DNA from: a virus
Taxonomy: Duplodnaviria; Heunggongvirae; Uroviricota; Caudoviricetes
Reading direction: 5' to 3' (one strand)
DNA: 14,084 nucleotides
IMG/VR virus record: IMGVR_UViG_2541047837_000006
Span: 1 to 14,084 of that record
Below are positions 1 to 13,031 of this stretch, in pieces (the first letter of the stretch is position 1; the number at the start of each line of letters is the position of its first letter). The notes below the pieces were generated by a model. That model made no database searches. It had not been told where the DNA came from and worked only from the letters and a program-made list of their open reading frames with translations. The translations under genes and the position numbers were made by a program.

Positions 1-288
1 TCAATGGTTGGCGTCATTATCTTTTTCTCTTTCTGAACGTGAATATTGCGGTGGACGGTTCATCAGCTGTGGGGCAAGACGTTTTGCCACCTGAAGAATA
101 ACCACCACCGCAGCGGGAAGCATGAGCAAAACACCGAGAAAAATCATCAGAATCTGCACTTCTGGCCGAGAAAATGGCTCAGGCAGCGACAGGGAGTCGC
201 TTACCGACAGCAGCGCCACCGCCAGTAGCATCATTCCGATAAATTCCAGTATCAACACGCCTTTAGGCAATTTACCGATCGCGCGCAT
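1..288 (-). CDS. ybjC: Small inner-membrane protein YbjC (DUF1418 family)
   Basis: 95-aa ORF with hydrophobic segments; translation matches my recollection of E. coli YbjC; divergent from grxA as in E. coli. Confidence 0.8.
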   Translation of the reverse strand: MRAIGKLPKGVLILEFIGMMLLAVALLSVSDSLSLPEPFSRPEVQILMIFLGVLLMLPAAVVVILQVAKRLAPQLMNRPPQYSRSEREKDNDANH

Positions 289-447
289 ACGCTTCCCTCT
301 GCAAAGTGAGCCTTCAGTCTAAAACTTTTCACTGTATTGTGTTTAACAGTTATAGCTTTTAGCAATTAATGCAACAGGTTAAACCTACTTTCAGCGAATA
401 CATTTTAGCGTGATCATTACAGGCATAAATCTATGAGGAGAGAAATA

Positions 448-705
448 ATGCAAACCGTTATTTTTGGTCGTTCGGGTTGCCCTTACTGTGTGCGTGCAAA
501 AGATCTGGCTGAGAAATTGAGCAATGAACGCGATGATTTTCAGTATCAGTATGTAGATATTCGTGCGGAAGGGATCACTAAAGAAGATCTACAACAAAAG
601 GCAGGTAAACCCGTAGAAACCGTGCCGCAGATTTTTGTCGATCAGCAACATATCGGCGGCTATACCGATTTTGCTGCATGGGTGAAAGAAAATCTGGACG
701 CCTGA
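448..705 (+). CDS. grxA: Glutaredoxin 1
   Basis: Translation MQTVIFGRSGCPYCVRAKDLAEKL carries the CPYC active-site motif. Start chosen at ATG 448 (SD-like GAGGAGAG at 436-443) rather than the in-frame ATG at 433. Confidence 0.93.
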   Translation: MQTVIFGRSGCPYCVRAKDLAEKLSNERDDFQYQYVDIRAEGITKEDLQQKAGKPVETVPQIFVDQQHIGGYTDFAAWVKENLDA

Positions 706-714
706 TCGTCTGAC

Positions 715-747
715 AAGCCCTCGCGTTGAGGGCTTTACTGATTTTTT
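715..747. terminator. Putative bidirectional terminator between convergent grxA and ybjM
   Basis: Stem agccctc (716-722) / gagggct (728-734) with 5-nt loop, followed by T-run 742-747; lies between two convergent stop codons. Confidence 0.45.
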
Positions 748-1112
748 CTGTGCTGTGGTTTAAACAAACTACTGATAAATAAGAAACACAGTGCCCCCAG
801 CGCACACCAGAACACCGCGCTTAGTAACCATGCCAGCTCTTGCCAGAATGAGCGCGTCGGTGAAAAAAACAGCCGCATAATGAGCATCGAACAGGGTGCC
901 GCCAGCATTGCGCCAAACAGAGGTTTCAGGACTTCTCTACGCTGTGAAAAGAAGCTGGCGACTGCTCCAGGAAGAATGAAAAATAGCAAGCCGATTTCAG
1001 GATGCCCGGCAGCCCGAAAAGCGCCTTTCATGTGCGTCGCCAGAAAAAGGCACACCACAATGAAGAGGACAAAACAGCAGATTGCCCCCGCCCAACGTTG
1101 TTTATGTTTCAC
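735..1112 (-). CDS. ybjM: Inner-membrane protein YbjM
   Basis: 125-aa strongly hydrophobic ORF; translation and position next to grxA and ybjL match E. coli YbjM as I recall it. Confidence 0.8.
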   Translation of the reverse strand: MKHKQRWAGAICCFVLFIVVCLFLATHMKGAFRAAGHPEIGLLFFILPGAVASFFSQRREVLKPLFGAMLAAPCSMLIMRLFFSPTRSFWQELAWLLSAVFWCALGALCFLFISSLFKPQHRKNQ

Positions 1113-1381
1113 TCGTTCCTCCTGACACTGCGTCTATCGAACACATTTTTCGCCAGTGTGGCGTTCAGTAAGATAAAGCCGCTTCGCATTCCATGCTAAT
1201 ATAGGCCAACGCAATTCATATAGCCGTTGATACCTAATGTGATTACACTAGTAAAATATATTGTTGCTTTACTATCGTTTAGGTGCGCTGAATGAATCTG
1301 CGCCCTGAATTCTGGTAAAAAACATTATCGTAAATTACCATTTCTTTCAACAGCTTACTAGTAAACAAGAAGTTAGCCTCC

Positions 1382-3067
1382 GTGAATATAAACGTCGCCG
1401 AATTGTTAAATGGGAATTACATTCTGTTATTATTTGTGGTCCTCGCGCTTGGGCTATGTCTCGGAAAGTTACGACTTGGTTCGATCCAACTGGGTAATTC
1501 CATTGGCGTTTTAGTCGTATCGCTGTTATTAGGCCAACAACATTTCAGCATTAACACCGATGCGCTTAATCTTGGCTTTATGCTGTTTATTTTCTGCGTC
1601 GGGGTCGAAGCCGGACCGAACTTTTTTTCCATTTTTTTTCGCGATGGGAAAAATTACCTAATGTTAGCACTGGTGATGGTTGGCAGTGCGCTGGTGATCG
1701 CCTTAGGGTTAGGTAAGCTGTTTGGCTGGGATATTGGCCTGACGGCCGGTATGTTAGCAGGCTCTATGACGTCGACACCGGTTCTGGTCGGTGCTGGCGA
1801 TACACTGCGTCATTCCGGCATGGAAAGCAGGCAGCTCTCACTGGCACTGGATAATCTGAGCCTCGGGTATGCCTTAACCTATTTAATCGGTCTGGTGAGT
1901 TTGATTGTTGGTGCGCGTTACTTGCCGAAATTGCAGCATCAGGACTTACAGACCAGCGCCCAGCAAATCGCCCGCGAACGTGGCCTGGACACTGATGCCA
2001 ACCGTAAGGTTTATTTACCGGTGATCCGCGCCTATCGCGTCGGCCCGGAACTGGTGGCCTGGACCGACGGCAAAAATCTGCGTGAACTGGGTATTTATCG
2101 ACAAACCGGCTGCTACATTGAACGTATTCGACGTAACGGGATTCTGGCAAATCCAGACGGTGATGCCGTGCTACAAATGGGCGATGAAATAGCGTTGGTA
2201 GGCTATCCCGACGCCCATGCCCGACTCGATCCCAGCTTCCGTAACGGTAAAGAAGTTTTCGATCGTGACCTTCTCGACATGCGTATCGTCACTGAAGAAG
2301 TGGTCGTTAAAAACCATAACGCTGTAGGTAAACGTCTCGCACAACTGAAGTTGACCGATCACGGTTGCTTCCTTAACCGCGTCATTCGTAGCCAGATTGA
2401 GATGCCGATAGATGACAACGTCGTGCTTAACAAAGGTGACGTTTTACAAGTCAGCGGCGATGCCCGCCGCGTAAAAACCATCGCCGATCGCATCGGCTTT
2501 ATCTCGATTCACAGCCAGGTCACTGACCTGCTGGCATTCTGCGCCTTCTTTGTTATTGGGCTGATGATCGGGATGATCACCTTCCAGTTCAGCACATTCA
2601 GTTTCGGCATGGGGAACGCTGCCGGGTTGTTATTCGCCGGAATTATGCTGGGCTTTATGCGTGCTAACCACCCGACCTTCGGTTACATTCCGCAGGGTGC
2701 ATTAAGCATGGTGAAAGAGTTCGGCTTGATGGTGTTTATGGCAGGCGTTGGTCTGAGCGCCGGTAGCGGTATTAATAACGGCCTGGGCGCGATTGGCGGT
2801 CAGATGTTGATTGCCGGATTGATTGTCAGTCTGGTGCCCGTGGTTATCTGTTTCTTGTTCGGTGCTTATGTATTGCGAATGAACCGCGCGCTGTTGTTCG
2901 GCGCAATGATGGGCGCACGTACCTGCGCGCCGGCAATGGAGATCATCAGTGATACAGCTCGCAGTAACATCCCGGCGCTGGGCTATGCGGGCACCTATGC
3001 AATCGCCAACGTCCTGCTGACGCTGGCAGGGACAATCATCGTCATGGTATGGCCAGGATTAGGATAA
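1382..3067 (+). CDS. ybjL: Putative AAE-family transporter YbjL (membrane domains flanking cytoplasmic TrkA-C-like domains)
   Basis: 561-aa ORF with GTG start at 1382; hydrophobic N- and C-terminal blocks around a soluble central region; translation [20 protein letters not shown] matches YbjL. Confidence 0.88.
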
Positions 3068-3179
3068 AACTGAAGTTGCCCTGAAAATGAAATTTTTTTG
3101 CACAACCGCAGAACTTTTCCGCAGGGCATCAGTCTTAATTAGTGCCACTGCTTTTCTTTGATGTCCCCATTTTGTGGAG

Positions 3180-3222
3180 CCCATCAACCCCGCCATTTCG
3201 GTTCAAGGTTGATGGGTTTTTT
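3180..3222 (+). terminator. Rho-independent terminator downstream of ybjL
   Basis: Stem cccatcaacc (3180-3189) / ggttgatggg (3207-3216) followed by TTTTTT (3217-3222). Confidence 0.55.
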
Positions 3223-3302
3223 GTTGCCTGAAATTTATACCGTTTAAAATCATGATGTTAGAAGAACTGTTTTTTAACGATGGCGACAAAATGGCGGCAG
3301 CG

Positions 3303-3521
3303 TCAAAGAGAGAGCGCCACCTGCCCTGATTTCATTGGATGCGGCTGAACCGGATTTGACTCTTTTGGCGTTGCAATCGAACGAACAAAAGTTTCATGAG
3401 TAACAAAAGTATGGCTGCAGTTAATGTTCTGGCACTGGTTGTAACGCTCTTTGGTCAATGAAGATACCTGAAAACTGCTGCGAGTATGGGCGGCACTTCC
3501 ACACAGTGGGCAAATCATCAT
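3303..3521 (-). CDS. ogr: Ogr/Delta-family zinc-finger late transcription activator
   Basis: 72-aa product from ATG at 3521 (SD-like GGGGAGAA upstream); C-x2-C-x22-C-x4-C motif (CPLC ... CQNINC). The ORF is open to a GTG at 3554, so the start is uncertain. Confidence 0.85.
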   Translation of the reverse strand: MMICPLCGSAAHTRSSFQVSSLTKERYNQCQNINCSHTFVTHETFVRSIATPKESNPVQPHPMKSGQVALSL

Positions 3522-3611
3522 TTTTCGAGTTCTCCCCATTTTTGCTAAATTCACAATAATGATACCGCATTATCCCATTTTGCAAACTTAAAAGTTCTCC
3601 ATTGCGAAGAA

Positions 3612-4880
3612 TCATTCCATTTCGAAATCATCAATCCTCACTTCAAGCTCCAGACTGGTCGTAAAACCATTATCCGGGCTGACGGTATGTGTCAGAGTCG
3701 TAATGGTCCATTCCGCATCATCTATCGGCTGTTTAAAGCCACTGACTTTCACTGGCATTTCCGTGTAGAGATCTGCCCGCCCTTCCGCCAGTTGTAGCGA
3801 GAATGACGCAACGCCGCGTTGCAGGCGTTCCCACTGCATTTTCGCCGCTCGTTCAGCGTTGCCCCGGTTGGCATAAGTACGATTAAGTACCAGCACGTTT
3901 TCATCCGTACCCACCAGGTAATCGCCCTGCTTCGCTTCCGGCTCTTTCTTCTGCTTTGCGGTCCTGCGCTTACGCTTCACCGTGGTGCTTTCTTTCTTCG
4001 CGGGTTCGCGGGTATGCAACCAGCTGGCAATTACGCCCGTGTAAGATCCGCGATCTGCCAGGGTAAAGCGGTGACTGTCGCCGTCCTTACGTGTGATAGT
4101 GATCACCGGCAGTGGTTTACCGCTGGCGCTTTTACCCTGTCCCTGCCGAATGAATAACAGATTGCCATTTTTCACCGACGCAATAGCACCGTACTGGCGC
4201 GCCAGCCGCATCAGAAAACTGCCGTCACTCTCATTAGTCTGGTCTATATGTTCCACGGGTTTATCTGACAGGTCTTTACCCAGTGCCATCTTCAGCTTGT
4301 GACGCGCGGCTATTTCCTTCACCACTTCCCCAACTGTGGTCTTGTGCCACGATTTTTCACGGCGGGTATTCAGCGTTTCCCGAAAATCAGCACTTCGCGC
4401 CCGGACACCGTCCACAATTTCCACCATGTTGATAAGGTCCACTTCGTAGAGCACCTCACCATTGATGGTCAGCTTCGCGTAGCTGTTGGTACTGGTCACT
4501 TTGGTGGTGTTGCTTTCGCCCGTCTTCCACTCGCCGGAATCCACTTCTTTGTGACGTCCACGCACCACAAGCTCCACGGCCTGCACTTCCCCGGTATCGT
4601 CACGCTGGATAGAGCCGGTAAAGCGCAGCTGGATGCCATCCACCGTAGCTTTGCCCATCTGCTTAAACAGCAGCAGCTCAGTACCGCCAATGGAAAATTC
4701 AGTATCCAGTGCGCCGTCATCCAGTCCCAGATCCACATCCACCGCCCCCGGCATACCGCCGCCGCGATACTTCTCATATTTGCGGGTGAATTTCGGCAGC
4801 GTCAGCGACTCTACGATCCCCTGCCAGTTGTTCCCGTCGTTAAACAGGTTCAGATGTTTTAATTTACGTGGTAAAGCCAT
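3612..4880 (-). CDS. Chimeric ORF: tail tube FII-like N-terminus (~155 aa) fused in frame to tail protein D-like C-terminus (~265 aa); probable deletion product
   Basis: N-terminus MALPRKLKHLNLFNDG resembles P2 FII tail tube; C-terminus resembles the gpD family and sits directly upstream of ogr as D does in P2. The genes expected between FII and D (E, E', T, U) are absent. Confidence 0.65.
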   Translation of the reverse strand: MALPRKLKHLNLFNDGNNWQGIVESLTLPKFTRKYEKYRGGGMPGAVDVDLGLDDGALDTEFSIGGTELLLFKQMGKATVDGIQLRFTGSIQRDDTGEVQAVELVVRGRHKEVDSGEWKTGESNTTKVTSTNSYAKLTINGEVLYEVDLINMVEIVDGVRARSADFRETLNTRREKSWHKTTVGEVVKEIAARHKLKMALGKDLSDKPVEHIDQTNESDGSFLMRLARQYGAIASVKNGNLLFIRQGQGKSASGKPLPVITITRKDGDSHRFTLADRGSYTGVIASWLHTREPAKKESTTVKRKRRTAKQKKEPEAKQGDYLVGTDENVLVLNRTYANRGNAERAAKMQWERLQRGVASFSLQLAEGRADLYTEMPVKVSGFKQPIDDAEWTITTLTHTVSPDNGFTTSLELEVRIDDFEME

Positions 4881-4889
4881 GTTGCCCCC

Positions 4890-6062
4890 TTACGCGCTTA
4901 CCTGGCTGGAGAAATTCACCAGGTACTGATCGGTGATGCGCTGACGCAGCATCAGGTTTTCAAGTGGCGGTACTGGCGTGTAGTCGTAATCGATGGTGAG
5001 TTTTCCGGCTTTCAGCGTGTCTTTATCGTTCACCGACTCGTCCAGCCAGCAATCACCACCAATGAGATAGCCCTGACTGACCAGGCTGCGCATTTTGGCG
5101 CGAATACCTTCGATAATGTCGCGGGCCAGCGACGGGTTCAGCGGTTTGTCCACCGCCCACATATGCGCTTCTGCCATCGTGTCCATCAGTACCTGCGCCG
5201 TGCGGGTGTAGTTTTCGAAGGCAAAGAGCGGGTCATCACTCAGGCAGCGGGAACCCCAGAAGCGGAAACCGTCTTTGCGGATAAGCGTGGTGACGTCGTT
5301 CTGGTTAAGCAGTCCCGCATCGGTTGCCGGGTCCTGCAGATCCCAGAACACATCAGCAGAAATTCCGGTGACACCGTTCACGCCTACGTTGGACAGGCTC
5401 TTGTGCCACCCGGTCTGCTCATCAATTTTGGCGCGCAGACCGAGCGCACGGGCGGTGGCATATGCCGTTGCTTCGGCATTCAGCACCGTGTCCCAGCCAG
5501 TAAAGTCAGGCCAGATCAGCATCCCTTCGCGCTGACTGAAGTTTTCACGGTAAGTGATCGCCTCCTGCACTGTCTTGCAGCCATACGCTGACAGGTAAGC
5601 AAACCCGCGCAGGCTTTGCGCCACACTCAGCAGCTCAGTCGCAACGGCTTTGTTATCGTGACCCGGCACGCCGAGAATGCGCGGTTTAACGCCGAGCTGT
5701 GACTGGGCAGATAACAGGGCTTTCATACCTGTTTTTTTACCCTCGGCGGTCACTGCGCCAATGATATTGGTTGTGGTTTCTTCTTCCGTTTCACCCTGCG
5801 GCACACGCACAACAACGGTCACGGGTTTTGCCTGGTCAGCGATGGCATCCAGCGAACGGGCCAGCGTGCCGGACTCACCCGCTTTACCGCTGGCAGTCAG
5901 CACATCAGTGATCAGCACGGGTTTATTAAGAGGAAACATTTTTGCATCGGCATCATCGCCCGTGCAGACCATGCCCACGATGGCGGTGCTCACCGTGGTA
6001 ATGGATCGGGTGCCTTCGTTGACTTCAACAACGCGCACTCCGTGGTGGTAATCCTGAGCCAT
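4890..6062 (-). CDS. FI: Contractile tail sheath protein FI
   Basis: 390-aa product; N-terminus [19 protein letters not shown] and C-terminal region [13 protein letters not shown] match P2 FI as I recall it; immediately upstream of the FII-like ORF. Confidence 0.9.
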
Positions 6063-6084
6063 AAGGCAGTCTCTCCGGTTGTAG

Positions 6085-6160
6085 AGGGGGTCTGCCTATG
6101 TTCTGGTTGATACGCGCAGGGTGCACGCGATGGGGATTGTATGGGAAATGGCACAACAGC
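6085..6160 (-). promoter_or_regulatory. Putative Ogr-dependent late promoter pF (dyad TGT-N12-ACA at 6138-6155)
   Basis: TGT (6138-6140), 12-nt spacer, ACA (6153-6155); dyad centre about 85 nt upstream of the FI ATG, consistent with a -55 activator site and ~30-nt leader. Confidence 0.5.
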
Positions 6161-6275
6161 GCCATGAGGGCTTTTCATAAAATAATCAATATATCTCAAT
6201 ATGTATTGATTATTATACGCAAATCTATTTTACTATTGCGCATCTGTCATCCATTTAAATCAGATTGAATACTAT

Positions 6276-7307
6276 ATGAAAAGAGATATTTCTTTAGACC
6301 TGTTACGTATTATTTGTTGTATTTTTGTAATAGGAATTCATGTCACGCCCGACTATGCTTATACTGTTACCAGTAACCAAACAGAAAGTATACAAATACA
6401 AACTCTTTTTGCACAATCAATTGTACGCATTGGTTTACCAATATTCTTTATGTTAAGTGGATACTACCTACTCAACAGACAAAATAGCACTCCACTTTTG
6501 TTTTATAAAAAAAGAATCCCCGCCATTATTATCCCTTTTGTAATATATTCATTAGCACATTACTATATTATTAGCTGGAATAATGGAACGTCATCGAATT
6601 TACTTGAATATTTCTCATTAATATCTAAAAGCACTATTTCACTCTCTGTGCATTTCTGGTTTGTTTATGCCTTTATCGGTTTGTATTTAACCGCTCCAGC
6701 AATTCAATACATAGTCAATAAAATCCCACAAGCCGACAGCCTTAAGGTGATTATAGTTTTGGCTTTCATTTTTTATTATTCATTATACTCATACTCTCTA
6801 AGCCAATCCTCTCAATACTACCATCATTTAATCCCATTACAGAGCATAGATACATGGGTTTTATATTTTGTTGTCGGCGGATTATTAAAAAGAGTTGACA
6901 TTAAAACACATTATATTGTATATAGCATCCCTTTTATATTTTTACTACATGTGATGTTTGTTTATTTTAGCGTTAACAAATATAACTTTAACATATACCC
7001 ATTTGACTCAGGGATTAATATGTTGTTAATGTGTTCCTTGATAGTAATTGCATTTACAAAAATAAACATCAATAATAAAAAAATAATTTTAATCATTGAA
7101 AAAATAGCACCTCTGACATACGGAATTTATTTAATTCATGTTTGTGTTTTCAGAGTCTTAGAGAAATATTTCAATATTCCTTTTATCGTGGACAACATTT
7201 TACTAAAAACAACATCCCTGTCTTTAGTCATTTTTTTTATCAGCCTTGGTTTAAGCTTGATTATTGATCGGTTGTTTGTTAATCCAATTCTCAGACTGAA
7301 TCGTTAA
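6276..7307 (+). CDS. Acyltransferase-3 family integral membrane protein (Oac/OafA-like acyltransferase); prophage cargo gene
   Basis: 343 aa, highly hydrophobic with multiple predicted TM segments; N-terminal LDLLRIICCIFVIGIHV resembles the family signature; strongly AT-rich; occupies the position of Z/fun in P2. Confidence 0.72.
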   Translation: MKRDISLDLLRIICCIFVIGIHVTPDYAYTVTSNQTESIQIQTLFAQSIVRIGLPIFFMLSGYYLLNRQNSTPLLFYKKRIPAIIIPFVIYSLAHYYIISWNNGTSSNLLEYFSLISKSTISLSVHFWFVYAFIGLYLTAPAIQYIVNKIPQADSLKVIIVLAFIFYYSLYSYSLSQSSQYYHHLIPLQSIDTWVLYFVVGGLLKRVDIKTHYIVYSIPFIFLLHVMFVYFSVNKYNFNIYPFDSGINMLLMCSLIVIAFTKININNKKIILIIEKIAPLTYGIYLIHVCVFRVLEKYFNIPFIVDNILLKTTSLSLVIFFISLGLSLIIDRLFVNPILRLNR

Positions 7308-7767
7308 ATGGCTTAGTCGGAAAGGCTGTATCAGAGGCTTTTGATGGATCAATAGCCTCTAATGCTTCAATATAATCAAGCCATATGTTATACATTTCCA
7401 GTTCAGTAGCATTCAGTCTCCCAAGCAATGCTTTCCCCTGCCATTGTTTGTTATTTATATAATTTACAGCTTCTATTATACGTGCTTGTTTTTCAGTTTT
7501 TGCTTTAGCCACTAACTCTGTATATGTGAGTGGTGGCGTATCAATCCATGCAGGCATACCATTATCATCTGCCCCAAGAATTTTTCCTTCCGGAGGTTGT
7601 TTCATGAATTCACAAGCAGTCTCATTTGAAATATCCACCCCTTCCTTAGGCCACATTCCATTTCTTTCATATTCATTTTTTAATATATACGCCATAAATC
7701 TGGCATTTACCTTATCCCATATGAAATCATAAGAAGAATCATGTTGATAATCATCACAACTTTTCAT
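7291..7767 (-). CDS. Tail fibre assembly chaperone (Tfa / gpG-like)
   Basis: 158-aa ORF starting 2 nt after the H stop; soluble protein with a C-terminal region resembling Tfa proteins; AT-rich like the 3' end of H. Confidence 0.6.
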   Translation of the reverse strand: MKSCDDYQHDSSYDFIWDKVNARFMAYILKNEYERNGMWPKEGVDISNETACEFMKQPPEGKILGADDNGMPAWIDTPPLTYTELVAKAKTEKQARIIEAVNYINNKQWQGKALLGRLNATELEMYNIWLDYIEALEAIDPSKASDTAFPTKPFNDSV

Positions 7768-7769
7768 AT

Positions 7770-9209
7770 TTAATATCCAAATGCAATAAATACAGCGCCT
7801 GAAACTTTTGAATCACTGCTGGTTCCTGATGTCAAACAAGTTACAGCAGTAAACCCATCATTATATATACTTTCGCACGACGTAACGACTTGTGCATATG
7901 TCATTTTTGTGACAAACACACCCCATACTCCGTTAGGGAATGGCGTTGGATATGTAATAGGAAGCTGTTGTGGAATACCAATAGTTGTACTATTAGGAAG
8001 ATTTCTTCGAAATATTTGTATAATTAAACCATTCGGACCTTTAACCAACAAATTATCGCTTCCTTTTCCTGTTAGCTGAAAATAGCTCATGTCAGGGATT
8101 TCATAACTATTAGCATTACCAACATTTCTACCTGCCGCATTTCCCAAATGCCCTAAACCAAGATAAGTAAGAATTCCTTCTATATCCTTTCCACTCAAAT
8201 TAGTCAGCGTATTATCCAGCGGTTGTTTGCCTGCCAGCGCATTAAGCATTGTCGTGGCAAAGTTCGGGTCATTCCCCAGCGCCGCCGCCAGTTCGTTCAG
8301 TGTATCCAGTGCCGCAGGTGCAGACCCCACCATTGCTGCAATTGCCGATTTCACAAAAGCTGTAGTGGCAATCTGTGTATTGTTGACCGACTGCGCCGCC
8401 GTGGGGGCTGTTGGCGTTCCGGTGAGTGCCGGACTCGACAACGGTGCTTTTAGTGCCAGCACATTGTTAATGGTGGTACTGAAATTCGGATCATTGTTAA
8501 TGGCTGCGGCTATTTCTTTCAGCGTGTCCAGCGTGGCTGGCGCACCATTAATAAGGGCCGTCAGTGCCGCCTGAACAAACGCAGTGGTCGCAACCTGCGT
8601 GGTATTATTCCCCGCCGCTGGCGTTGGCGCTTTGGGGGTTCCGGTAAACGTCGGACTTTCTTTGGGTGCATACTGTGAATGTGGGTCCTGTGCGGCAAGG
8701 TGTTTTGCCATCAGGTCATCCACATACACCTTCAGCTCCAGTACCTTGTCATCCACATACTTGCGGGTTGCCAGCACTACAGCAGGATCGATTTTCAGGG
8801 TGATATTTTCCGTGCTGCTGGTAATCAGCACCATGCGCACGGTCTGGGTGCGCCCGCTGCCTTCAGCCAGTTGCGGCTTATAGCTTTCCGGGCAGTTGCC
8901 CACGGCAATCAATGCCCCGGACTCATCAAACAGGCCCACTTCACGTATCCACCAACCTCCCTCGTTTTCAGGGATCACCTGTTCGGCAATAATCTGGCTG
9001 CTGTTCTGCGGGTCGATATAGAGCATATTCAGCGCAGCCCGGCGTTTCTCATTTACCAGTGCCGTCTGCTTTGCGTCCGGCGTTGGCAATGTTCCGCCGC
9101 CATCGCCGACCGCCATATGGGTAATTTTTAAAGGCACACCGAGCGCGGCGGCGCTGGCAAGTTTCGCCGCGCCAATATCCGTCAGCAGGGTATAAAATTT
9201 TGTGCTCAT
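7770..9209 (-). CDS. H: Tail fibre protein H with conserved N-terminus and divergent C-terminal receptor-binding region
   Basis: N-terminus MSTKFYTLLTDIGAAKLA ... MAVGDGGG ... ESYKPQLAEGSGR resembles P2 gpH; internal repeats contain the NELAAALGNDPNF motif; C-terminal ~160 aa unrelated and AT-rich. Confidence 0.85.
   Translation of the reverse strand: MSTKFYTLLTDIGAAKLASAAALGVPLKITHMAVGDGGGTLPTPDAKQTALVNEKRRAALNMLYIDPQNSSQIIAEQVIPENEGGWWIREVGLFDESGALIAVGNCPESYKPQLAEGSGRTQTVRMVLITSSTENITLKIDPAVVLATRKYVDDKVLELKVYVDDLMAKHLAAQDPHSQYAPKESPTFTGTPKAPTPAAGNNTTQVATTAFVQAALTALINGAPATLDTLKEIAAAINNDPNFSTTINNVLALKAPLSSPALTGTPTAPTAAQSVNNTQIATTAFVKSAIAAMVGSAPAALDTLNELAAALGNDPNFATTMLNALAGKQPLDNTLTNLSGKDIEGILTYLGLGHLGNAAGRNVGNANSYEIPDMSYFQLTGKGSDNLLVKGPNGLIIQIFRRNLPNSTTIGIPQQLPITYPTPFPNGVWGVFVTKMTYAQVVTSCESIYNDGFTAVTCLTSGTSSDSKVSGAVFIAFGY
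8230..8700. repeat. Diverged tandem duplication (~230 bp unit) inside tail fibre gene H
   Basis: Two protein-level repeats (ATTAFV...ALDTL.E.AAA...DPNF.TT) and corresponding DNA similarity, e.g. gttccggtgagtgccgg versus gttccggtaaacgtcgg; boundaries approximate. Confidence 0.55.
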
Positions 9210-9811
9210 GGATTCACTCTCATTGTGTCAATAACATGGACCGCCCCGCCTTCATGCGCGGTGCCGCCGGAAATAATTGTTTCGTTGATATACGGATAGA
9301 TCGTGATTTCTTCACCAAGATAGCTGGCGGCTCCCACCCAATGCGGGCCGCTGGTCTGCAGATTGATGGACATGCCGATCATGTGACGGCTACATGGTTT
9401 GGCATCGCTTATCAGCCGCTCAAGCTCCAGATAGGTATCTTCAGTGATGCCCTGGTCCTGCACACCAATGTCCAGGCGAAACGTACCCGGTGTTTCTCCG
9501 GTCTGCCACCACTCAATAATGCGGATCAGGAAGCCGAACGGCTCCACCACCCGCCGCACGGCACTGGTGGTTCCTTTATGCTGATGAATATAAAAAGCAT
9601 CCTTCACCACCTGTCGTTTGACGCTTTCCGTCCAGCCCTCGTCCCAGCGATCCACAGAGAACGCCCAGGCGAGATAAGGCAGGAAACTGATCGGACAGGT
9701 CGTTGGATTCCACAAGTCACGCAGCGGCACCTGCAGATCAGAAATCCCGCTGCAGGTTTGCGCCAGTCGGCGCTCCAGTGGCGTTGAACCCGGTGGCAGC
9801 AGACTATTCAT
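9206..9811 (-). CDS. I: Baseplate/tail protein I
   Basis: 201-aa product with the motif LRDLWNPTTCP ... LAWAFSVDRWDE ... GTFRLDIGV ... DAKPCSRHMIG resembling P2 gpI; start overlaps the preceding J' stop and its stop overlaps the H start. Confidence 0.8.
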   Translation of the reverse strand: MNSLLPPGSTPLERRLAQTCSGISDLQVPLRDLWNPTTCPISFLPYLAWAFSVDRWDEGWTESVKRQVVKDAFYIHQHKGTTSAVRRVVEPFGFLIRIIEWWQTGETPGTFRLDIGVQDQGITEDTYLELERLISDAKPCSRHMIGMSINLQTSGPHWVGAASYLGEEITIYPYINETIISGGTAHEGGAVHVIDTMRVNP

Positions 9812-10034
9812 CCGTTCCTCCGTTGGTTACGCTCCACTGCGTACATGATGCCGCCTGTGTTTTGTTCAGGACCACATCCGCCAGAGGAGAAGCCAGCTCC
9901 ACACGCTGCACACCCTCAACATGCAGGGCGGCAAAGATGGCGCTACGGCGAATATCCCGACCAAGACGCGTCTGACTGGCGATGTACTTCTGCAGGCTGG
10001 CTTTTGCCGCTGCCATTACCGGCTCTGCTTCCGG
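9804..10034 (-). pseudogene. J: Baseplate protein J, C-terminal ~70-aa fragment
   Basis: Translation AKASLQKYIASQTRLGRDIRRSAIFAALHVEGVQRVEL resembles the gpJ C-terminus; the frame is closed by a stop at 10035-10037, so the N-terminal ~230 aa are absent. Confidence 0.6.
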
Positions 10035-10375
10035 TCAGCGAACTTCGGGCTGACTTCCATAGAGGTGAATAATTTCTGGCCTTTTTTCACCAGTTCCACC
10101 AGGGACTCCGTTGGCTCAACGTCGGCATACAGCGCCATCTTGCCTGCCAGCGGACCTTCCGTGATTTCTTCAGCAAACAGCGCCGTCACCTTGCCGTAGC
10201 GGTTAAAGGTGCTGTCCGGCAGATAAGACTTGATGTGCTCAAGGTTAATCAGCGCGGTATACACCGCCGGGTTGTAGCTGGCTGCCATCTGTTCCAGCCA
10301 TTCTCGCTGGATTTCGCGTCCGTCGGTGGTGGCACCTTCCACCCCGATGCGAAAACGCTTTGCTTTCACTGTCAT
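10016..10375 (-). pseudogene. O: Capsid scaffold protein O, N-terminal ~110-aa fragment
   Basis: Translation FRIGVEGATTDGREIQ ... INLEHIK ... TSMEVSPKFA resembles the gpO N-terminus; ORF ends after 119 aa versus ~280 aa for intact O. Confidence 0.65.
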
Positions 10376-10399
10376 GAGCCGTGCTCCGTTAGAAAAAAC

Positions 10400-10475
10400 T
10401 TACTGGAGCCTTATGGTTGCGGTGATGGGGGCAGTGAAACAATGCGCGGTATTTGTACCGACAACCACACAAACC
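10400..10475 (-). promoter_or_regulatory. Putative Ogr-dependent late promoter pO (dyad TGT-N12-ACA at 10454-10471)
   Basis: TGT (10454-10456), 12-nt spacer, ACA (10469-10471); dyad centre ~87 nt upstream of the O' ATG, the same spacing as the FI dyad. Confidence 0.5.
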
Positions 10476-10517
10476 GCAGGCGGGGAAAGCCTTCATTCAA
10501 GGCTGTAGGTTTGTGCC

Positions 10518-11372
10518 ATGAACACCACACTGACACCCGCAGATCTCGATCCCCGTCGGCAGGCCATGCTGCTGTACTTTCAGGGATACCGCGTAGCCCG
10601 CATTGCTGAAATGCTGGGCGAGAAAGTTGCAACCGTTCACAGCTGGAAAAAACGCGACAAGTGGGGTGACTATGGGCCGCTGGATCAGATGCAGCTCACC
10701 ACCGCCGCACGCTACTGCCAGCTCATCATGAAGGAGCACAAAGAAGGGAAAGATTTCAAAGAGATTGACCTGCTGGCGCGCCAGTCTGAGCGCCACGCGC
10801 GGATCGGCAAGTTTAACAATGGCGGCAACGAATCCGACTTAAACCCTAACGTCGCCAACCGCAACAAAGGCCCACGCCGTCAGCCGGAAAAGAATGTTTT
10901 CACCGATGAGCAGATTGAGAAGCTGGAAGAAATCTTCCATTCCTCCATGTTCAACTACCAGCGCCACTGGTGGGAAGCCGGAAAAACCAACCGCATCCGC
11001 AACCTGCTGAAGTCACGCCAGATCGGCGCGACCTTTTACTTTGCCCGTGAAGCCCTGATTGACGCCCTGCTGACCGGACGTAACCAGATTTTCCTTTCCG
11101 CCAGCAAGGCACAGGCCCACGTCTTTAAGCAGTACATCATCGACTTCGCCAAAGAAGTGGAGGTGGAGTTGAAAGGCGATCCGATGGTGCTTCCTAACGG
11201 GGCCACGCTTTACTTCCTCGGCACCAATGCCCGCACTGCCCAGAGTTATCACGGCAACCTGTATCTGGATGAATATTTCTGGATACCGAAATTCCAGGAG
11301 CTGCGCAAAGTGGCTTCCGGTACCGCACCTGCAGCAACACGCCCGATCTCTGCGGTTGCACTCATGACGTAA
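10518..11372 (+). pseudogene. P: Terminase large subunit P, N-terminal ~268-aa fragment
   Basis: Translation ...[15 protein letters not shown] ... [12 protein letters not shown] ... [15 protein letters not shown] ... [15 protein letters not shown] resembles the gpP N-terminus; similarity ends near 11321 and the ORF stops at 11372 versus ~590 aa for intact P. Confidence 0.8.
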
Positions 11373-11662
11373 TGTGGCAGTTTCTCTTTTGCCACCTCAT
11401 TAATTGGTACGCATGGCAGGCAGTGAATCTGTGCCAGAAAACCATCTACCAACGTTGAATCTTCAGTCAGATCGGTAAGCAGCCAGATTTCTGGTGCGGT
11501 TAATAAATGAGGTTGAGCTGGGTTCAGCTTGTTCCGCAGAATCTGCACATTCATGCCCGCACGTTCTGCCAGTTGCACCAGATTGTGGCGCAGTGCGAAT
11601 GCACGACAGGCTTCATCAAAATGTGGATGTTTGGAAACTTGGTAATCAAACATGGTTTTCAA
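11249..11662 (-). pseudogene. 186 CII-like transcription activator, 3'-truncated; ORF tail runs antisense into the P fragment
   Basis: N-terminal ~105 aa with an HTH-like segment ([19 protein letters not shown]) and position downstream of the apl-like gene; the last ~30 codons are the antisense of P coding sequence. Confidence 0.5.
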
Positions 11663-11717
11663 CTCCGAACTTATCGCAAAATCGAACTCAGCGTCTTATT
11701 GCGAAAATAGACGTCTA

Positions 11718-11921
11718 TTAAGCAGACAAAGCATCAACAGTCAGAGCAGCCAGGTTAATCATTACCTTTTCACGTTTTTTGTCTTTACGAAGACGATGAC
11801 GAGGTAGTCGGCCATCAGCCAACATGTCGTTAATCGTATCAATAGAAAGGCCAGTCAGTTCGCTATAACGTTCGATTGTGACATGTGGTGTATTCAGAGT
11901 AATTGAAATGTTAGGTGTCAT
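11718..11921 (-). CDS. Apl/Cox-like small DNA-binding excisionase and switch regulator
   Basis: 67-aa basic ORF, first gene divergent from the repressor and followed by the CII-like gene, the arrangement of the 186 lytic operon; SD-like AAGGA upstream. Confidence 0.6.
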
Positions 11922-12066
11922 AAGGCAACATTCCTTCTAGATATGGCTTGTGGCGAGCCGTTGTTTGTCGTGATTAGTAGTGAAGGCTCCAAAAGAACAC
12001 TTCTGGTTCAACTTTAAGATCGCTTTTGGAATCTGTCAACGAATTTTGGATTTCTTTGGAGGACTT
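11922..12066. promoter_or_regulatory. Putative immunity switch region (lytic and lysogenic promoters with operators) between apl-like and cI-like genes
   Basis: Divergent gene starts; 8-bp perfect inverted repeat tccaaaag (11988-11995) / cttttgga (12023-12030). Promoter elements not individually resolved. Confidence 0.4.
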
Positions 12067-12636
12067 GTGGATTTCAATAGCGGCGGTAAGAAAGCCATAG
12101 AACGTTTAGTTGAAGCATATGGGTTCGGTACCCGTCAGGCTCTCTGTGATCATTTAGGTGTTTCTAAGAGCACCATGGCAACGCGCTATATGCGTGATAT
12201 TTTTCCAGCAGATTGGGTAATCCAGTGCGCCCTTGAAACGGGCACCTCGCTTAATTGGCTAACAACAGGGCATGGTTCAAAGCAAGCATCAGCAAATACA
12301 AATACTATAGAAGTAGAAAAATATTTATTGTCTGATGGAGCATTGCAGAAAGACGGTTTTTATATTTTTGATAAGGGATTTCTACCCTCTACGTTTAAAA
12401 AACCTTTTGTCATCACAGATAACAATTCTGAATTTATTTGTGATAAAGAATTTGATGATATACGTGATGGTAAATGGGTAATAAGTATTGATGGCGAAAT
12501 AACGATCCGTGACATTACTCGTTTACCCGGTGGAAGAATCTTCGTCGAGGGTGGAAACAGAGCCTTCGAATGCAAGATAGAAGACATTGAAATAATTGGT
12601 AAAATTATAAGTTTAACAGTCAAGCATGTTAAATAG
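12067..12636 (+). CDS. 186 CI-type immunity repressor (~189 aa)
   Basis: Divergent from apl and upstream of int; LVEAYGFG N-terminal region and overall length consistent with the 186 CI family. Start set at GTG 12067 (GGAGGA at 12058-12063); the ORF is open to a GTG at 11980, so the start is uncertain. Confidence 0.65.
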   Translation: MDFNSGGKKAIERLVEAYGFGTRQALCDHLGVSKSTMATRYMRDIFPADWVIQCALETGTSLNWLTTGHGSKQASANTNTIEVEKYLLSDGALQKDGFYIFDKGFLPSTFKKPFVITDNNSEFICDKEFDDIRDGKWVISIDGEITIRDITRLPGGRIFVEGGNRAFECKIEDIEIIGKIISLTVKHVK

Positions 12637-12651
12637 TACCGGGAGGAAACT

Positions 12652-12843
12652 ATGCTTGGTAAGGTATTTTTTGTGGTTTTGTCATGTTCTTTGTTATTAA
12701 ACCCACTAACTACCTATGCTAGAAATTATCCCTGCTCAGGGAAAAAGGGAGGTGTTTCTCACTGTACCTCAGATGGCAAATTCGTTTGCAATGATGGAAC
12801 TATTAGTAAATCCAAAAAAATCTGTACTAAAAACTCACGATAA
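12652..12843 (+). CDS. Small secreted or lipid-anchored Cys-rich protein (63-aa precursor) of unknown function
   Basis: Strong SD GGGAGG 6 nt upstream of the ATG; N-terminal signal peptide ([23 protein letters not shown]); basic mature part of ~40 aa with 4 Cys; 15 nt downstream of cI on the same strand; AT-rich. Confidence 0.5.
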
Positions 12844-13031
12844 CTTTTGCTTTTATATCTGCGTCTAAAATAAAAATGAGCCGCAGGTTAACCGCAAAAG
12901 TTACATGCTCACATAGCAAAAAGAATAGCCAACTTCATGATGGCTTCAGTGAGATGTATGGTCGTAGGATTTCATACATTGACACTGGTTATACATACAG
13001 TAAAAATGCTCTCTACTGGAGGGCATTTTTT

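Follow-up and report, generated by a model that had tools for sequence, protein, structure and literature searches.

Internal deletion is a well-known route of prophage decay. Deletion hot spots with one fixed endpoint are also known, at the nick sites of rolling-circle origins, at Ter-arrested forks and at hairpin-associated endpoints. The prophage analysed here does not differ in kind from the defective (cryptic) P2/186-like prophages of Escherichia coli: it has the same gene order and gene families (ogr, D, FII, FI, G, H, I, J ... O, P, CII, apl, CI, int), it occupies the ybjL-rcdA attachment locus that is shared with the intact prophages of CFT073 and BL21, and it has decayed in the same way, through internal deletions that leave pseudogenes behind. 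What distinguishes this copy from the other cryptic prophages of the group is a set of three clean internal deletions, and it keeps intact ogr, sheath and tail-fibre genes, an acyltransferase gene, CI and int.

The illegitimate recombination described in E. coli starts with a break that arises from disturbed replication; the ends are resected, and the 3' tails are aligned by microhomology and joined by ligase, independently of RecA (PMC11372144). One of the three deletions, called J2 here, joins the remains of the capsid scaffold gene O to those of the baseplate gene J, and it resembles this RecA-independent, microhomology-dependent process (of the type seen in the lambda Spi- assay; alternative end-joining) in its short overlap, the lack of long homology, its kilobase scale and the absence of a recombinase site. 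The overlaps in that system are around 9 bp (PMC11372144), whereas those at our junctions are 1-2 bp, and its genetic requirements (RecBCD/RecJ, LigA, suppression by SSB/RecQ) are not readable from sequence.

A P2/186-type prophage remnant with three internal deletions

The stretch of DNA that we analysed, referred to as the window, is 14,084 bp long and 100% identical to positions 1311418-1325501 of the chromosome of E. coli LR-64-2 (NZ_AP027595.1). RefSeq places the host genes ybjC, grxA, ybjM and ybjL in the window and rcdA beyond the prophage remnant, which sits between ybjL and rcdA at the same locus as the intact, colinear prophage of CFT073. The gene order of the remnant in RefSeq is ogr, D' (pseudogene), FII' (pseudogene), sheath, acyltransferase, G, H, I and J' (pseudogene), followed by O', P' and CII' (all pseudogenes), a 67-aa protein, CI, a 63-aa protein and the integrase. 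An imperfect 27-nt direct repeat with the common core ATGGGTTTTTTGTT flanks the element (at 6212 and 17159 of locus L001), and hallmark proteins are present by Pfam and annotation (the gpO protease/scaffold, gpJ, the gpP terminase, FII, D, Ogr, CI/CII and the integrase). The identity of the window to P2-like phages in GenBank is 98%, and that to the CFT073 prophage is 97-98% over three colinear blocks. By its colinearity, its hallmark proteins and its attachment repeats alike, the element is a P2/186-type (Peduoviridae) prophage remnant.

When the window was compared with the CFT073 prophage by blastn, positions 1-4405, 4405-10036, 10035-11322 and 11321-11973 matched the reference positions 12501-16905, 21292-26923, 34056-35343 and 45041-45674, respectively. 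The window prophage carries three internal deletions, J1 (at 4405), J2 (10035/36) and J3 (11321/22), with overlaps of 1, 2 and 2 nt. A previous reading of this DNA, made from the sequence alone (the sequence-only reading), had described a single deletion; it exists, as J2, but is one of three.

The acyltransferase gene (PF01757, Acyl_transf_3; 6276-7307, plus strand) lies on the opposite strand between the tail-fibre assembly and sheath genes, and is intact both in the remnant and in CFT073. It is a candidate lysogenic-conversion gene, and might account for the retention of that part of the prophage. At the other end of the element, the immunity region (11973-12973) encodes CI (189 aa) followed by a YdcA-like ORF of 63 aa. 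This region is not similar to the CFT073 prophage at the DNA level, whereas the integrase end is; the two prophages, otherwise 97-98% identical, thus show a mosaic swap of immunity.

The O'/J' junction is a deletion scar of 7.3 kb

A look-up of the exact protein I sequence led to an intact prophage (L018; GCA_043763265.1), which we used as the ancestral form, and three-way alignments were made to this reference and to CFT073. L018 is 100%, 99.96% and 100% identical to the three retained blocks of the window that it covers. At J2 one flank matches it over 5632 nt (99.96% identity) and the other over 1288 nt (100%). The 7,345 bp that separate these flanks in L018 are absent from the window, and the intact and the deleted forms differ in nothing else. 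Because both flanks are colinear, kilobase-long and near-perfect matches to one phage genome, J2 is not a chance pattern.

The window belongs to the J side up to 10036 and to the O side from 10035 onwards, and the junction (10035..10036) is a 2-bp microhomology, TC on the plus strand, common to both parental sites. With the overlap in brackets, the left reference reads ..GCTTCCGG[TC]CCGGATAG and the right one ..GCCCGTA[TC]AGCGAAC; the corresponding parental sites in L018 are ...CTCTGCTTCCGG[TC]CCGGATAGAG in J and ...TTTGCCCGTA[TC]AGCGAACTTC in O. According to the gene calls of L018, the lost block extends from O codon 114 to J codon 225. It contained the rest of O, N (capsid), M (terminase), L, X, the holin and lysozyme genes, lysB, lysC, R, S, a 186-aa ORF, V, W and three quarters of J.

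The sequence-only reading had proposed that similarity to O gives way to similarity to J within 10016-10040, and that several kb had been lost, including the rest of O, the capsid, lysis and tail-completion genes and most of J. Alignment to the intact prophages bears out both proposals, placing the switch at 10035/10036 and the loss at 7,345 bp relative to L018; it also identifies the O and J fragments as adjacent remnants of one colinear P2/186-type prophage (CFT073, L018). The check for short direct repeats at the breakpoint, which that reading had suggested, yields the 2-bp TC. J2 is a genuine 7.3-kb deletion scar in a dead P2/186-type prophage, and represents ordinary prophage decay. Both of its stumps were already known, annotated by RefSeq as pseudogenes that meet at window position 10034.

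We consider the probability that assembly or scaffolding created J2 to be negligible. Such errors do occur in the O-P region of one relative (L006, GCA_949281595.1), where apparent tandem duplications (reverse complement, 8399-9420) are scaffold joins, each with a single N, and not biology. The window, however, contains no Ns; a complete genome and a 2013 scaffold (L017) have exactly this junction, as do at least 61 blocks of public assemblies (independent NCBI and Logan) in which the exact 119-aa chimera described below is called.

Reading frames across the junction

The minus strand around the junction reads ...TTCGCTGACCGGAAGCAGAGCCGGTAATGGCA... O' (10035..10375, minus strand) holds the first 113 codons plus 2 nt of the gpO capsid scaffold/protease gene (341 nt), and J' (9804..10036, minus strand) the last 77 codons plus 2 nt of the baseplate gene J (233 nt), with a translation equal to residues 226-302 of the intact J of L018. 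RefSeq describes them as pseudogenes, 'GPO family capsid scaffolding protein, missing C-terminus' and 'baseplate assembly protein, missing N-terminus', respectively. With these lengths the O frame enters the J DNA out of frame, and it stops after six codons. The result is a chimeric 119-aa ORF (10016..10375, minus strand) made up of 113 O codons and 6 out-of-frame J codons (..FADRKQSR), then TAA, which matches profile positions 2-111 of 268 of Pfam PF05929 (Phage_GPO; E 3.4e-55).

A 70-aa ORF (9804..10016, minus strand), assigned to Pfam Baseplate_J_C in precomputed annotation, starts at the internal Met233 of J (residues 233-302), where its ATG and the O' stop codon share a base and together form TAATG (10018-10014). 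This ATG is an internal methionine of J, and the reading frames of O' and J' differ, so the junction gives no fusion protein, nor does it reflect any designed coupling. The stop/start overlap that the sequence-only reading saw at 10014-10018 of the minus strand is real, but it is an incidental by-product of the junction and not the junction itself, which lies 17-20 nt upstream in the direction of the genes.

The other deletions and the relative age of J2

J1 lies at 4405, between the tail tube gene FII' and D', where 4,387 bp were lost with a 1-nt microhomology (A). The genes E, E+E', T and U were lost together with the end of FII and the start of D, and what is left forms a 422-aa ORF (3612-4880, minus strand) that fuses tube and gpD in frame, with residues 1-159 of FII followed by the C-terminal ~263 residues of gpD; both Pfam domains are present, and RefSeq annotates the region as two pseudogenes. 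J3 (11321..11322) joins codon ~269 of the terminase gene P to CII, with about 9.7 kb lost relative to CFT073 and a 2-nt microhomology (TA), its parental sequences being those of L005 and L007. It removed Q, cos, an accessory-gene region, A with the ori, and early genes, and the ORFs at this junction (P'/CII') are 10518-11372 on the plus strand and 11249-11662 on the minus strand.

Several sister loci carry J2 together with other rearrangements. L005 and L014, both 100% identical to the window up to the left breakpoint of J3, have J1 and J2 and, in place of J3, the deletion J4 (P'/Q'), whereas L007 has J2 plus a 2.2-kb inversion and a further deletion, J5. In L009, J2 occurs with full-length P, Q and A, so J2 is older than the J3 of the window. 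J1 is present as well in all J2 carriers that could be examined for it; the L009 locus ends before the J1 region. L009 and the window are identical from about -255 to +57 nt of the junction and diverge by 3-4% beyond, which would mean either that an old J2 had its flanks replaced afterwards by exchange with other P2-like phages, or that the identical junction arose twice. A look-up with ogr gave nearly all intact prophages and added one degraded locus (L033).

Six of the sister prophages (L005, L009, L013, L014, L019 and L027) have a DarT-macrodomain (DarTG-like) pair and an AIPR-domain gene between DinI and the portal gene. The window lineage lost these accessory genes through J3.

By itself J2 is of little weight, as it is a well-resolved textbook case of a temperate phage disarmed, with lysis and capsid genes lost first. 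The value of the locus lies in a precisely dated series, in which a near-identical intact prophage and sister remnants with different further deletions make it possible to read the parental sequences of about a dozen natural deletion junctions exactly.

Probable origin of J2

Our main reading, to which we assign a probability of about 85%, is that J2 is a neutral-to-beneficial scar and not a working element, left behind when an intact P2/186-type prophage lost 7,345 bp in one illegitimate-recombination event. The starting point would have been an intact prophage of this type integrated between ybjL and rcdA, in which ...GCTTCCGG[TC] of gene J became linked to [TC]AGCGAAC... of gene O in a single event. 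We infer that the joining was RecA-independent and mediated by microhomology. Either the resected ends left by a break or a collapsed fork were joined, or the template was switched, which would leave the same scar; a 16-nt imperfect repeat and perhaps a small hairpin ending at the break may have helped. Judging by gene content, the deletion would have persisted because the prophage, having lost the holin, lysozyme, spanin and virion genes, was unable to kill its host.

As far as sequence features can tell, microhomology-mediated illegitimate recombination appears to be the best reading of the scar on both counts: the overlap is short (about 1-10 bp being typical of such scars) and has no longer homology around it, and neither a mobile-element end nor a recombinase core is present. 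A 2-bp overlap is little more than chance would provide at a random junction, so the use of microhomology is no more than plausible. Upstream of the overlap the two parental sites share an imperfect repeat, GGCTCTGCTTCCGGTC versus GGCTTTGCCCGTATC (also given as AGGCTTTGCCCGTATC), whose best stretch matches at 12/16 positions, and the imperfect homology flanking J2 scores 5 against a null of 2.1 +/- 1.3. As a general driver of these deletions extended imperfect homology was rejected, being modest at J2 and at J9 (a deletion in related prophages, see below) and absent at J1 and J3. RecA-dependent homologous recombination between repeats, which needs ~20-25 bp or more, was also rejected: only 2 bp are identical at the breakpoints, and no repeat of at least 20 bp was found at the J2 junction.

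A site-specific recombinase, or an adjacent deletion mediated by an IS, is a very improbable source of J2 and already largely refuted. One-sided specificity and a fixed retained end do resemble deletions made at transposon ends or nick sites, and one relative (L022) has a serine invertase and IS1. The window prophage, however, has no invertase, no IS, transposase ORF or att-like core lies at 9,800-10,400, and both sides of J2 are phage coding DNA identical to the intact phage, with neither an IS nor a transposon end in the vicinity. The parental sites lack common inverted half-sites, and recombinase pseudo-sites were rejected on similar grounds, since the partner sites are unlike the J site and the length of the overlap is not constant (1 to 4 nt). 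The att core (ATGGGTTTTTTGTT) is unrelated to the breakpoints, and phage integrase acting at secondary sites was rejected as well.

Recurrent use of the breakpoint in J

A plain random break followed by end-joining does not predict two features of the wider data set, namely the reuse of the J breakpoint and the presence of CCGG near several junctions. The left end in J, ...GCTTCCGGT, has four partners: O codon 113 in J2; CCGGCAGATAAG, at O codon ~59, in J10 (L029); CACCGATTGCAG, in the portal gene Q, in J9 (L024, L032 and L043, with an IMG/VR contig among the carriers); and CACCGCAATACG, downstream of dam at the dam/A boundary, in J8 (CFSAN051542, whose prophage has a different att site and different immunity). 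Over the 850 nt to the left of the J breakpoint the prophages with J8-J10 show 23-35 mismatches to the window. J8 and J9 have an identical left flank, and J8 is probably a nested extension of J9.

Truncated copies of J are rare, at most 15 among 5,426 complete genomes, and 7 of them end within an interval of 140 nt around the site; the ORF-based look-up detects only endpoints within about 48 nt of the J site. Exact-pattern scans for more junctions at this site gave none in metagenome contigs, none in genome contigs and one, of the J9 type, in IMG/VR. The copy of GCTTCCGGT in the P gene is not recurrent, as 1 of 1,190 records is partial there, and this is LR-64-2 itself.

These relatives bear on the number of events behind J2, which the sequence-only reading took to be one. 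One event and two nested events that share the left end look alike in the sequence of J2, and we regard it as improbable that the 7.3 kb disappeared stepwise, through at least two deletions in succession with a common J-side end. Stepwise loss would be in line with the probable descent of J8 from J9 (identical 850-nt left flank, common GGTCACCG), and J10 could derive from J2 through the loss of a further 181 bp. Among the assemblies read, however, there is no intermediate that combines a smaller O/J-side deletion with the alleles of the window, and the deleted form is otherwise without difference from L018. A single event is therefore kept as the simplest reading, although the nested deletions at the same J breakpoint in relatives leave room for two successive ones.

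CCGG and hairpins beside the junctions

The 9-mer GCTTCCGGT at 10027..10035 (plus strand) ends at the J2 breakpoint, with its CCGG at 10031-10034, and the second copy in the window (11313-11321) ends at the J3 junction. The 47.8-kb CFT073 locus contains GCTTCCGGT only twice, exactly at the left breakpoints of J2 and J3. In all three deletions of the window the low-coordinate retained flank ends in CCGG before the overlap (GCGCCCGG[A] at J1, GCTTCCGG[TC] at J2 and GCTTCCGG[TA] at J3), and at J4 of the sister lineage CCGG is placed likewise, with the orientation reversed (GATGTCCGG[T]). Of about 10 breakpoint sites in all, 4 have CCGG directly beside the junction (J1, the J site, J3 and J4), and in these the deleted DNA is always 3' of CCGGW on the motif strand.

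In simulations CCGG abutted a random junction with a probability of 0.0097, which gives p values of 6e-7 to 4e-6 for 4 positives among 8-12 junctions, or roughly 1e-4 to 1e-3 once the post-hoc choice among 256 tetramers is taken into account. CCGG is absent at five other junctions (J5, J7, J11, J14 and J16) and at one inversion in related prophages. The association between CCGG and the breakpoints looks real, and none of the known sites with which it was compared (see below) matches.

A weak candidate hairpin, ACCGG-N8-CCGGT (10018..10035, plus strand), lies in the retained flank of J2, and its 3' arm ends at the breakpoint. The DNA fold of this left flank has -6.7 kcal/mol and a z score of -1.95 (ViennaRNA). 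Stems of 5-6 bp with a paired 3' end are present at the left and right flanks of J2 and J3 (J2L, J2R, J3L, J3R) and at J4, against a null of 0.08-0.12 per end. Protection of 3' ends by hairpins was nevertheless rejected, because the stem counts are suggestive but the ViennaRNA DNA folds back only the J2 left flank. The junction products also show an apparent palindromy (CGGT-N-ACCG), which is partly explained by the shared descent of J8 and J9 and for that reason carries no weight here.

Comparison with nick sites and a possible directed break

The J site resembles the hot spots with one fixed endpoint in that the deletions have one end in common, exact to the nucleotide, and differ in the other, and in that the fixed site stays in the product. 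It differs from them in that no origin, Ter or known nickase site matches, the A-protein ori of this lineage (GCGCCCCTTGGACTCG) being unlike GCTTCCGGT. The ori annotations give GCGCCTCG^GAGTCC for P2 and GCGCCCTCTCG^GAG for 186. Action of gpA, the HUH replication nickase, at a pseudo-ori was rejected: J1 alone (CGCGCCCGGA/TAGTC, the slash marking the junction) is loosely like the P2 ori, 1-2 nt off register, whereas J2, J3 and J4 are dissimilar and no junction resembles the lineage's own ori. To our knowledge none of the invertase, shufflon, IS-end and restriction-site motifs that look similar, namely gix/hix, sfx (TCCGGTNNNTGG), the ends of IS1 and IS5, WCCGGW and GGTNACC, fits in register or orientation.

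The recurrence of the J endpoint suggests another way in which J2 could have formed, which we hold to be unlikely but the most serious of the alternatives. The break may have been directed by sequence or structure at ...CCGG(T) in J, and the fixed left end then joined to a variable distal site. Candidate agents are a nicking or cleavage activity that recognises CCGG or the hairpin, or the stabilisation of the 3' end by the ACCGG-N8-CCGGT hairpin. Under the same tentative scheme the motif, which survives in the product, could fire again and give rise to nested, one-directional deletions.

Several observations argue for such a break: the same left breakpoint was used with four partners in prophages that differ by 23-35 mismatches per 850 nt, the identical left flank of J8 and J9 is consistent with nesting, 7 of the at most 15 truncated J copies end near the site, CCGG is found at J1, the J site, J3 and J4 with GCTTCCGGT restricted to the J2 and J3 breakpoints, and 5-6 bp stems are present at J2L, J2R, J3L, J3R and J4. 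On the other side, neither an enzyme nor a site family could be matched (Int att core, lineage A-protein ori, invertase, IS ends), the 9-mer copy in P is not recurrent, and J5, J7, J11, J14, J16 and one inversion are without CCGG. Hairpin thermodynamics are weak except at J2L, the pattern was found post hoc, and the look-up sees only endpoints within about 48 nt of the J site. J9 and J10 moreover have 4-nt or imperfect 12-nt homology, which could alone explain the choice of partner.

That the J position at the end of GCTTCCGGT, or more generally CCGG(W) beside small hairpins, is a true mechanistic hot spot seems to us somewhat less likely still. If it were, breaks would be made or 3' ends stabilised there, and the retained motif would drive the repeated, one-directional erosion of morphogenesis and lysis genes. 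Prophages would then have a sequence-directed route of inactivation, possibly via an unrecognised host or phage nuclease. Should the J-site/CCGG pattern be upheld by an unbiased survey, it would indicate that one step is directed by sequence, both when prophages decay and in the illegitimate recombination of E. coli. Only this recurrent, CCGG-associated breakpoint could raise the locus above the ordinary, and a specific mechanism behind it is doubtful. For J2 we retain ordinary illegitimate recombination in one event as the preferred reading.

Further rearrangements in the O region

The O-P intergenic region of the window (10474-10510) contains AGGCGGGGAAAGC followed by a hairpin, AAGCCTT-CATTC-AAGGCTG. 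The 13-mer presumably equals the central part of the P2/186 cohesive-end sequence (GGCG[A/T]GGCGGGGAAAGCA); a search with the full cos sequence, allowing 3 mismatches, gave no match. Within the same intergenic region GGCGGGG/AAAGCC, again with the slash at the breakpoint, is one endpoint of the 2.2-kb inversion in L007.

A further, independent J'/O' deletion is present in E. coli LP50-1 (L044, 2900-2960), where J keeps 591 nt and O keeps 39 codons, with the overlap TTA. Its O-side endpoint is ~10 nt from that of J10 in L029 (GGTGCTGTCCGGCAG), and the O-side endpoints of these two deletions may mark a second recurrent spot.
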